Source of the DNA: a virus
Lineage: Duplodnaviria > Heunggongvirae > Uroviricota > Caudoviricetes
Strand: one strand, 5' to 3'
DNA: 4,433 nt
Virus record (IMG/VR): IMGVR_UViG_2541047441_000013
Coordinates: 1 to 4,433 of that record
Each line of letters begins with the position of its first letter. Within the stretch, counting starts at the first letter, position 1. Shown one piece after another: positions 2,495 to 3,553 of the stretch. The notes under the pieces are model-generated. The model had not been told where the DNA came from and searched no databases. It saw only the letters and a program-made list of their open reading frames with translations. A program made the translations under genes and the position numbers.

Positions 2495-3553
2495 ATGCTT
2501 AATACTGTAAAAATATCCAGTTGTGAGTTAATCAACGCCGACTGCCTGGAATTTATGCGGTCGTTACCCGAAAATTCTGTTGACCTGATAGTCACGGACC
2601 CGCCGTACTTCAAAGTGAAACCCGAGGGCTGGGATAACCAGTGGGCGGGTGATGAAGATTACCTGAAGTGGCTGGACCAGTGTCTTGCGCAGTTCTGGCG
2701 GGTGCTGAAACCTGCCGGAAGTCTTTACCTGTTCTGTGGCCATCGTCTGGCATCTGACACCGAAATCATGATGCGTGAGCGGTTTAACGTGCTGAACCAT
2801 ATCATCTGGGCAAAGCCGTCCGGACGCTGGAACGGGTGCAACAAGGAAAGCCTGCGGGCGTATTTCCCCGCCACAGAGCGCATTCTGTTCGCAGAGCATT
2901 ATCAGGGGCCGTATCGTCCGAAAGATGCCGGGTATGAGGCGAAGGGTAGGACACTGAAACAGCATGTGATGGCCCCGCTGATTGCTTACTTTCGTGATGC
3001 GCGCGCTGTCCTGGGGATAACGGCAAAACAGATTGCAGATGCCACAGGAAAGAAAAACATGGTGTCGCACTGGTTCAGTGCCGGTCAGTGGCAGCTGCCG
3101 AACGAAAGCGATTATCTGAAATTACAGGCACTGTTTGCCCGGGTGGCAGAAGAGAAGCATCAGCGGGGTGAACTGGAAAAGCCCCACCACCAGCTGGTGG
3201 ATACGTATGCCTCTCTGAACCGACAGTATGCGGAGCTGCAGAGTGAATATAAGCATCTGCGGCGGTATTTCGGTGTGACGGTGCAGGTGCCGTACACCGA
3301 TGTGTGGACGTATAAACCGGTGCAGTACTATCCAGGGAAACATCCGTGCGAAAAACCGGCAGAAATGTTGCAGCAGATAATCAGCGCAAGCAGTCGTCCG
3401 GGAGACCTGGTTGCAGATTTCTTCATGGGGTCGGGGTCGACAGTGAAAGCAGCGATGGCGCTGGGACGTCGTGCAACTGGCGTTGAACTGGAGACTGAAC
3501 GTTTTGAGCAGACGGTGCGGGAAGTACAGGATTTAATCATTCGTAACGGATGA
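2495..3553 (+). CDS. Orphan DNA N6-adenine methyltransferase, beta-class (motif IV DPPY before motif I FxGxG), 352 aa
   Basis: ORF track 2495-3553. In-frame TGA at 2489-2491 fixes ATG 2495 as the first possible start. N-terminal ...DLIVTDPPYF (DPPY at 2597-2608) and C-terminal DLVADFFMGSGST (FxGxG at about 3422-3436) follow the order typical of beta-class amino-MTases; DPPY favours N6-adenine specificity. No restriction endonuclease gene is adjacent. Confidence 0.9.
   Translation: MLNTVKISSCELINADCLEFMRSLPENSVDLIVTDPPYFKVKPEGWDNQWAGDEDYLKWLDQCLAQFWRVLKPAGSLYLFCGHRLASDTEIMMRERFNVLNHIIWAKPSGRWNGCNKESLRAYFPATERILFAEHYQGPYRPKDAGYEAKGRTLKQHVMAPLIAYFRDARAVLGITAKQIADATGKKNMVSHWFSAGQWQLPNESDYLKLQALFARVAEEKHQRGELEKPHHQLVDTYASLNRQYAELQSEYKHLRRYFGVTVQVPYTDVWTYKPVQYYPGKHPCEKPAEMLQQIISASSRPGDLVADFFMGSGSTVKAAMALGRRATGVELETERFEQTVREVQDLIIRNG

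Follow-up and report, generated by a model that had tools for sequence, protein, structure and literature searches.

Prophages of Escherichia coli harbor a very large family of adenine methyltransferases (MTases), of which M.EcoGII is a member (Murray et al. 2018, PMC5778455). M.EcoGII and its relative M.EcoGI, both from E. coli O104:H4 C227-11, are identical at 333 of 349 residues (16 differences), and both are non-specific. M.EcoGII methylates adenine in any context, in double-stranded DNA, in DNA that is single-stranded, and also in RNA and hybrids. Up to 99% of the deoxyadenosines are methylated in vitro and more than 85% in vivo, and the product, N6-methyldeoxyadenosine, was measured by liquid chromatography-mass spectrometry. 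A strain with a deletion of mcrC-mrr served for the production of the enzyme, and both MTases are silent in the lysogen and deleterious upon constitutive expression (PMC5778455). A review sets M.EcoGII beside the Mom protein of phage Mu, as silent in lysogens and toxic. Here, we describe an MTase gene at positions 2495-3553 of a 4,433-nt stretch of DNA from a virus of the class Caudoviricetes (IMG/VR record IMGVR_UViG_2541047441_000013, positions 1 to 4,433; the whole stretch is called the window throughout), its relationship to M.EcoGI and M.EcoGII, and the transcription signals, the leader RNA, and the small open reading frame (ORF) that precede it.

The methyltransferase and its expected specificity

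The gene and its parts are located as follows:

2495..3553, + strand: beta-class N6-adenine DNA methyltransferase of the M.EcoGI/M.EcoGII family (ORF, PF01555, nucleotide and amino acid identities, PDB matches of the structure model)
2597..2608, + strand: catalytic motif IV, DPPY, residues 35-38 (read off the translation, within ...DLIVTDPPYFKV...)
3422..3436, + strand: S-adenosylmethionine (SAM)-binding motif I, FxGxG, F310-M-G-S-G314 (read off the translation, within ...ADFFMGSGST...)
2897..3274, + strand: central helical insert, about residues 135-260, predicted to comprise a nucleic-acid-binding domain and charged linker helices (AlphaFold model, likeness to M.EcoGII)

In the ORF listing of the window, an intact ORF of 352 amino acids (aa) with an ATG start spans exactly 2495-3553. 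DPPY at residues 35-38 precedes FMGSG at residues 310-314, and this order of motif IV, insert, and motif I is the beta-class order. D35, P36, P37, and Y38 of motif IV were unchanged across 55 homologues, and the same was true for F309, F310, G312, S313, G314, and S315 around motif I. The sole Pfam family matched by the MTase was PF01555 (N6_N4_Mtase), which covered residues 29-340 with an E value of 2.4e-43 and 149 bits, compared with a cut-off of 26.7 bits. The motifs and the PF01555 match are thus far beyond chance. A preliminary description of the window had recognized the gene as a beta-class amino-methyltransferase, which proved correct, also in view of the structural matches given below, and the gene represents a known, essentially already characterized type of MTase. 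The preliminary description had also favored adenine-N6 as the methylated position. DPPY is an established pointer to N6-adenine. Together with the identity of about 93–94% to M.EcoGII, the product of which is N6-methyladenine (m6A; PMC5778455), it indirectly supports the formation of an N6-adenine rather than an N4-cytosine product by the window MTase.

The gene is 100% identical at the nucleotide level to a prophage gene of E. coli O157:H7 EDL933 that is annotated as "DNA-methyltransferase" (WP_000935548.1), and the identical gene was found in many other O157 genomes as well. Related copies are present in 1,990 of 5,426 complete E. coli genomes, and thus, the family occurs in more than a third of them. 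Among the phage records, phage 1720a-02 and many phages that convert to Stx2a, Stx2c, or Stx2d contain the module with the MTase. The MTase of phage 1720a-02 (AGR48369.1), which has been named as very similar to M.EcoGII (PMC5778455), is 94% identical to the window MTase at the amino acid level. The matches to O157 genomes and phage records bear out the earlier notion that the gene is phage-borne; it is carried by prophages.

No protein identical to M.EcoGII was found in the phage records, and the M.EcoGII sequence used for comparison was a machine-read table in the supplement of the SUPREM paper. Judged against the 55 homologues, its text is wrong at three sites (NHHIW, TKVPQYY, GRRRAIG). The window MTase and M.EcoGII were identical at 325 of 350 residues, with two gaps that coincide with errors of optical character recognition in the source, and the identity is therefore quoted as about 93–94%, with a true value that is nearer to 94%. 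About 19 substitutions distinguish the two proteins; about 12 of them are located in the central insert, and none in motif IV or motif I. The window MTase and the M.EcoGI/M.EcoGII pair have the family and the length class (352 versus 349 aa) in common, as well as the order of DPPY and FxGxG, the helical insert, the prophage location, and the orphan status. The window MTase differs by the substitutions, by three extra C-terminal residues, and by representing the O157:H7-type allele (WP_000935548.1) instead of that of O104:H4.

An AlphaFold model of the MTase was built on the 55 homologues and reached moderate confidence (mean pLDDT 70, pTM 0.60). It predicts a Rossmann domain composed of two segments (residues 1-133 and 286-351) that flank a helical insert; the helices of the insert comprise residues 146-173, 177-184, 190-193, 204-223, and 231-255. 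A Foldseek search of PDB with the model yielded top matches that were all beta-class MTases, i.e., M.BceJIV, CcrM, MboIIA, and RsrI, with E values of 1e-13 to 1e-14. A sequence search of PDB also retrieved only beta-class amino-methyltransferases (M.BceJIV, M.RsrI, CcrM, M.MboIIA, and M1.HpyAVI), each matching in two separate stretches that left residues of about 115-268 uncovered, and no homologue covering the insert of about 135-260 was found in that search. The solved enzymes M.BceJIV (8URK), CcrM (6PBD), M.MboIIA (1G60), and M.RsrI (1EG2) thus have the same split Rossmann catalytic fold and the same motifs as the window MTase, but they are sequence-specific, only about 20% identical to it, and devoid of a counterpart of the 135-260 insert.

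For M.EcoGII, a model has been published that contains a target recognition domain (TRD) formed by a four-helix bundle (residues 160-237) with a helix-turn-helix (HTH), a charged two-helix linker, and a large positive surface; the central domain has been described as a non-specific, positively charged helical/HTH module for DNA and RNA binding, and the enzyme forms a dimer according to size exclusion (PMC11551740). The sequence of the insert is near-identical in the window MTase and M.EcoGII. The model, at its moderate confidence, indicates that the window MTase also carries an HTH-type helical insert and a charged linker in place of a base-reading TRD. The region of about residues 170-300, to which the preliminary description had assigned target recognition, therefore has to be replaced by a predicted helical insert at about 135-260.

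The preliminary description had called the specificity unknown and had expected the central region to specify a target. This view is superseded, because M.EcoGI and M.EcoGII, which are the nearest relatives that have been characterized, methylate adenine in any context. The homologues from Shiga toxin-producing E. coli O111, which have 92–94% similarity, were predicted to be non-specific and left no methylome signature. The reconstructed ancestors stay largely non-sequence-specific on RNA, and the DNA MTase activity varies only about threefold among the variants (PMC11551740). One of these ancestors, SUPREM, is 70% identical to the window MTase. Because ancestors with an identity of only about 70% keep the non-specificity on RNA, it seems robust to far more divergence than that between the window allele and M.EcoGII. 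The likely expectation from sequence similarity is thus that the window MTase has no target specificity at all. Methylome sequencing, which had been suggested as a check, has in effect already been performed on a protein with 93–94% identity. The MTase itself consequently adds little, being an allele of a well-characterized reagent enzyme that is used for chromatin footprinting.

Late position, leader RNA, and small upstream reading frame

Five features upstream of the MTase are considered here:

481..861, + strand: antiterminator Q (PF06530, E 8.7e-52; phrog_79, anti-termination protein Q-like)
1912..1995, + strand: region resembling the late promoter PR' with a first hairpin and T-run; start of the module that the window shares with O157 prophages (Sp5 homology)
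2118..2315, + strand: 65-aa ORF, putative winged-helix protein (phrog_331, function unknown, E 3e-37)
2302..2327, + strand: terminator-like hairpin (2302-2319) and U-run directly before the leader (GCCTTCAGTCCTGAAGGC then TTTTTTATTT)
2327..2497, + strand: conserved structured 5′ leader of the MTase mRNA, about 140 nt (alignment, covariation, covariance model)

Neither the ORF listing nor Pfam revealed a restriction endonuclease gene in the window. The comparison was extended to 83 related loci, of which 80 came from a scan of species-representative genomes and three from other look-ups. The 80 loci represent Escherichia, Citrobacter, Klebsiella, Enterobacter, Salmonella, Pantoea, Erwinia, Mixta, Yersinia, Providencia, Serratia, Photorhabdus, Xenorhabdus, and others. 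Gene families were formed by clustering all of the ORFs located up to 5 kb on either side of the MTase, and none of the recurrent families was a restriction endonuclease; the sole nucleases were the RusA resolvase and a terminase-associated HNH protein. Recurrent upstream families were DUF968, RusA, antirepressors, and four families of Q antiterminators (PF06530, PF06530/DUF1133, PF06323, and PF03589), while several holins, lysozyme, Rz and Rz1, and then HNH and the small terminase recurred downstream. Klebsiella michiganensis and Pantoea agglomerans, which were looked up independently, have the same gene order. The MTase is thus a true orphan, as had been noted before, and among the conserved genes of the late operon it comes first, between Q and the lysis genes.

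In the Sakai prophage Sp5, gene Q is directly followed by a segment to which the region at 1912-1995 of the window is 75% identical over 84 nt. Hexamers resembling a promoter can be read from the window sequence (−35 TTTACG, a 16-nt spacer, −10 TATGCT), and they are followed by a GC-rich terminator-like hairpin at 1973-1988 with a T-run reaching 1995. In Sp5, the constitutive late promoter PR' was mapped 258 nt upstream of the 3′ end of the terminator tR' by Sy et al. (PMC7547250), and a strong terminator is indeed found about 258 nt downstream of the post-Q segment (positions 1075-1105 of the Sp5 locus L088). By analogy, 1912-1995 probably contains PR' and the start of a short transcript similar to StxS. 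An Rfam match to isrK at 1917-1994 had 13.9 bits compared with a gathering score of 50 bits and was treated as chance-level. The hairpin and U-run at 2302-2327 would be equivalent, by position, to tR' of the Stx phage Sp5, and in the related loci, too, the leader is invariably preceded by a terminator-like hairpin with a T-run. Because the MTase lies behind these terminator equivalents downstream of the PR'-like promoter, it would be transcribed only when Q permits read-through. Such Q-dependent late expression would agree with the reported silence in lysogens. In 83 loci from many members of the Enterobacterales, the MTase comes first behind the late terminator, and this synteny turns Q-dependent late expression into a testable expectation.

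In Sp5 itself, the MTase, its leader, and the small ORF are deleted. Only the last approximately 36 codons of the MTase are kept (L088 1104-1226, equivalent to 3443-3553 of the window; …SVKAAMALGRRAIGVELESGRFEQTVREVQNVVSQNG*), and this remnant is fused directly behind the tR' terminator and is followed by ileZ, argN, argO, and stx2.

The leader, which occupies the approximately 140 nt that precede the start codon, is under strong selection and strikingly conserved, even between Escherichia and Providencia or Yersinia. Its mean pairwise identity is 0.80, which is similar to that of codon positions 1 and 2 of the MTase (0.82), whereas that of codon position 3 is 0.46. In the proposed fold, helix P0 (UGGGC/GCCCA) closes a three-way junction with P1, a hairpin of about 12 bp, and P2 (UUCGCU-CA-UG … CA-CA-AGCGAA); the hairpins P3, which is the palindrome GCUUUAGCGCUAAAGC, and P4 follow. 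The 3′ end of the leader, UGAUCUAUG, is at the AUG, and it does not contain a Shine-Dalgarno sequence.

Pairing statistics were calculated with 38 distinct sequences (alignment A4). In the leader, 91.8% of the alignment cells were paired, compared with 29–49% when the partners were slid, and compensatory double changes were observed at 13 pairs, compared with 4–6 in the slid controls. None of 500 shuffles reached the observed values. P1 and P2 were both strongly supported: seven of the nine outer pairs of P1 covary, and one pair of P2 occurs as C-G, U-A, and A-U. For P0, there is a single compensatory case, and P3 and P4 are mostly invariant and therefore neither supported nor contradicted. 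RNAalifold had proposed a pairing of UGGGC with GCCUA, which was replaced by UGGGC/GCCCA as locus L015 contains a compensatory exchange of G to A and C to U. The U·G pairs on the sense strand favor an RNA on the mRNA strand. A covariance model (R1) gave one strong match each (64.6–164 bits) in 55 of 85 sources searched (855 kb), and these matches are located on the + strand, with ends that coincide with the aligned MTase start or lie no more than about 10 nt from it. The R1 matches in Xenorhabdus and Photorhabdus were weak only.

Two other explanations for the conservation of the leader were considered. No Rfam family matched at the gathering threshold, and only chance-level matches were obtained at E values up to 10, so that a known RNA family or riboswitch was rejected. 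A protein-coding upstream ORF was rejected as well. Depending on the locus, the ORF that starts at an invariant AUG has 3, 6–7, 17–18, 27–28, 32–33, 38–40, or 43 codons, and in two loci 47 and 27 codons are found without a stop inside the extracted sequence. Its peptide alters wherever the stems covary, and an AUGA overlap with the MTase start is present in only 4 loci.

The leader of the window has a peculiarity, i.e., a 29-nt insertion in P1 at 2368-2396 (CTGTCAGTCCTTTGCTTATGTGTTGATGA) relative to every other leader examined. It is absent from the best matches listed among the 5,426 complete E. coli genomes, each of which spans 172 nt for a 201-nt query, and it is present despite the 100% identity between the MTase gene and the O157 allele.

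The 65-aa ORF, which has weak, sub-threshold matches to TrmB, DprA_WH, and HTH_20, is located 115-200 nt upstream of the MTase in 59 of the 83 loci (about 70%), among them loci of Xenorhabdus, Photorhabdus, and Providencia. In about 20 loci, the leader and the MTase are present without this ORF, and no consistent substitute small ORF was found in them. The 65-aa protein may be a regulator or a partner. One system for comparison is Mom/Com of phage Mu. Com is a translational activator of mom. Mom represents a toxic, late-expressed DNA modification that is silent in lysogens, and the window, in which a small ORF lies upstream and a structured region precedes the start codon, would have an analogous layout. 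However, Mom and the window MTase are unrelated in protein and in chemistry, and the small ORF of the window type is not universal. An obligatory Com-like partner is not supported, given the loci that lack both the small ORF and a consistent substitute.

The most economical guess is that the leader probably adds post-transcriptional control, of translation or of stability, over a toxic enzyme. A more far-reaching proposal, which we put forward only tentatively, is that it is an undescribed cis-acting structured leader of about 140 nt that gates the MTases of the M.EcoGII family after late transcription has begun. It might respond to SAM or S-adenosylhomocysteine, to the enzyme itself, or to the winged-helix protein, which could also be a specificity or activity subunit. 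Only two parts of the locus might be new, primarily the leader RNA and less so the winged-helix ORF. Both are unannotated, might help to control the expression of M.EcoGII, and could explain how the phage tolerates a toxic enzyme. If the gating proved to be true, the widely used reagent M.EcoGII would have been studied without its native control elements.

Role of the enzyme and alternative explanations

We consider it likely that the window encodes a prophage MTase of the M.EcoGI/M.EcoGII family that is non-specific and expressed late and that hypermethylates phage DNA against restriction. The family membership, the intact motifs, the fold class, the orphan status, and the position in the late operon were observed at this locus. 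The m6A product, the lack of specificity, the silence in the lysogen, and the toxicity would carry over from near-identical enzymes in the literature, and we infer the late timing in this phage and the anti-restriction benefit. The MTase would be silent in the lysogen and would be made only after Q-mediated antitermination past the two terminator-like hairpins. After induction, the Q-modified polymerase would transcribe the MTase gene along with those for the tRNAs, lysis, and packaging. A homodimeric, SAM-dependent enzyme would take up flipped adenines in its DPPY pocket and methylate them at N6, practically regardless of the sequence, while the nucleic acid would be held by the positively charged helical, HTH-containing insert rather than by a base-reading TRD. 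Replicating phage DNA would be hypermethylated before packaging, and in the next host, the DNA of the progeny would be resistant to many adenine-sensitive restriction systems of Types I, II, and III. DNA treated with M.EcoGII indeed resists many adenine-sensitive restriction enzymes in vitro (PMC5778455), and an anti-restriction role is plausible and is the accepted inference in the literature on this family.

Several points weigh against this proposal. The precise biological function of the family has been called unknown (PMC11551740). The loss of the gene from Sp5, a classic Stx2a phage, shows that the MTase is dispensable. The M.EcoGII sequence used for comparison came from a machine-read supplement, the confidence of the structure model is only moderate, and the approximately 19 substitutions, about 12 of them in the central insert, might affect the non-specificity of this allele. 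M.EcoGII was characterized without an accompanying winged-helix ORF, and the native substrate range could differ. In addition, dense m6A would sensitize DNA to Type IV systems that depend on m6A, and m6A-dependent nucleases with a fused winged helix are reported to exist (PMC11037411). Because of this sensitization, the anti-restriction benefit would depend on the host.

The clustering of substitutions in the insert would also fit an orphan adenine MTase with a central TRD that reads some motif, as would the similar predicted fold of M.PflMI, the nearest sequence-specific relative of the family. However, M.PflMI has an identity of only 27% to M.EcoGII and no charged linker, whereas the window protein retains this linker. 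The window protein is 93–94% identical to M.EcoGII, M.EcoGI differs from it to a similar extent and is yet non-specific, and the ancestors with about 70% identity are still non-specific on RNA. We therefore regard sequence-specific recognition as highly improbable. An even smaller chance is given to epigenetic cargo that reprograms host expression in the lysogen, a function that the preliminary description had offered as one of two. Other Stx-phage MTases do so, and M.EcoGIII affects 1,951 genes, but M.EcoGI and M.EcoGII are toxic and unexpressed in lysogens, O111 lysogens show no corresponding methylation, and the window MTase is located behind two terminator-like hairpins. Methylation could also serve phage DNA metabolism, i.e., recombination, replication, or packaging, and not the evasion of restriction. 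The MTase is grouped with late and packaging genes, phage P1 requires Dam methylation for packaging, and a 2025 paper reports that m6A enhances RecA-mediated recombination (PMC12403123). However, the Stx2a phage Sp5 propagates with the MTase deleted, and a non-specific enzyme could mark no sequence-specific site, which makes this explanation quite unlikely.

A two-component system is unlikely as well, although slightly less so. The upstream winged-helix protein would bind the MTase or the mRNA leader and shift the substrate, e.g., to RNA, or the activity, or it would be a Com-like activator of translation. The recurrence of the small ORF at a distance of 115-200 nt in distant Enterobacterales would fit, as would the start codon without a Shine-Dalgarno sequence after a structured leader and the methylation of RNA by M.EcoGII in vitro. 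A precedent exists in M.EcoPA8orf6770P, a Stx-phage MTase of the MT-A70 type that depends on PNB-2, encoded upstream, for targeting 16S rRNA and that gave a different picture when tested on its own (PMC10810198). In contrast, about 20 loci have the MTase and the leader without the small ORF and without a consistent replacement, M.EcoGII alone is fully active on DNA, a terminator-like hairpin lies between the small ORF and the MTase, and the winged-helix assignment is based on sub-threshold matches only. The system of M.EcoPA8orf6770P and PNB-2 likewise involves a Stx-prophage adenine MTase with a small upstream partner gene, but it is a different gene. The possibility that the window MTase is itself a Stx-phage rRNA MTase with a PNB-2 partner (M.EcoPA8orf6770P/M.EcoGV type) was rejected, as that enzyme is an MT-A70 protein with DPPW encoded at the other end of the phage (PMC10810198). 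The window MTase has DPPY, matches PF01555 only, and is encoded between Q and the lysis genes.

Other features of the window

The remaining features are the following:

129-500: RusA
1007..1831, + strand: CPBP/CAAX-type intramembrane protease (PF02517, phrog_13291; low GC content of 34–40%)
3594..3669, + strand: tRNA with CAU anticodon, ileZ-type (called Met by ARAGORN; the identical gene is annotated as tRNA-Ile in RefSeq)
3750..3826, + strand: tRNA-Arg (UCU), argO-type
3936-4144, + strand: small RNA (sRNA) STnc100 (Rfam, 175 bits, above the gathering score)
4146-4205, − strand: anti-GcvB sRNA AgvB (Rfam, 56.6 bits compared with a gathering score of 56)

No complete E. coli genome or phage record that covers at least 80% of the window was found, and the window is a mosaic. 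For RusA, Q, and the CPBP gene, the identity to one set of E. coli prophages is about 90%, whereas the module that reaches from PR' to the tRNAs matches O157:H7 prophages with 98–100% identity. The CPBP gene is inserted between Q and the PR'-like region and resembles a moron. It is missing from O157 prophages that have the same MTase module, where a DUF1133-type antiterminator is found instead. The idea that the CPBP gene is located between PR' and tR' and is hence constitutively expressed was dropped, because, judged by the homology to Sp5, the PR'-like promoter (1912-1945) lies downstream of CPBP.

The tRNAs downstream of the MTase are rare-codon tRNAs; two are present in the window, compared with three in Sp5. 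Phage 1720a-02 and many Stx2a- and Stx2d-converting phages, in which the MTase is annotated as "DNA methylase," also carry, downstream of Q, the module in which the small ORF is combined with the MTase and the tRNAs. In these phages, stx2 follows the tRNAs, whereas the window has no stx and the matches to STnc100 and AgvB are found at this place. In a K. michiganensis prophage (L004 7500-12700), the region between the MTase and the lysis genes has Pfam matches of the AcrVA2-like, Cas1-like, TerB-like, and Acb2/Tad1-hairpin types, which suggests that the slot downstream of the MTase collects anti-defense cargo.

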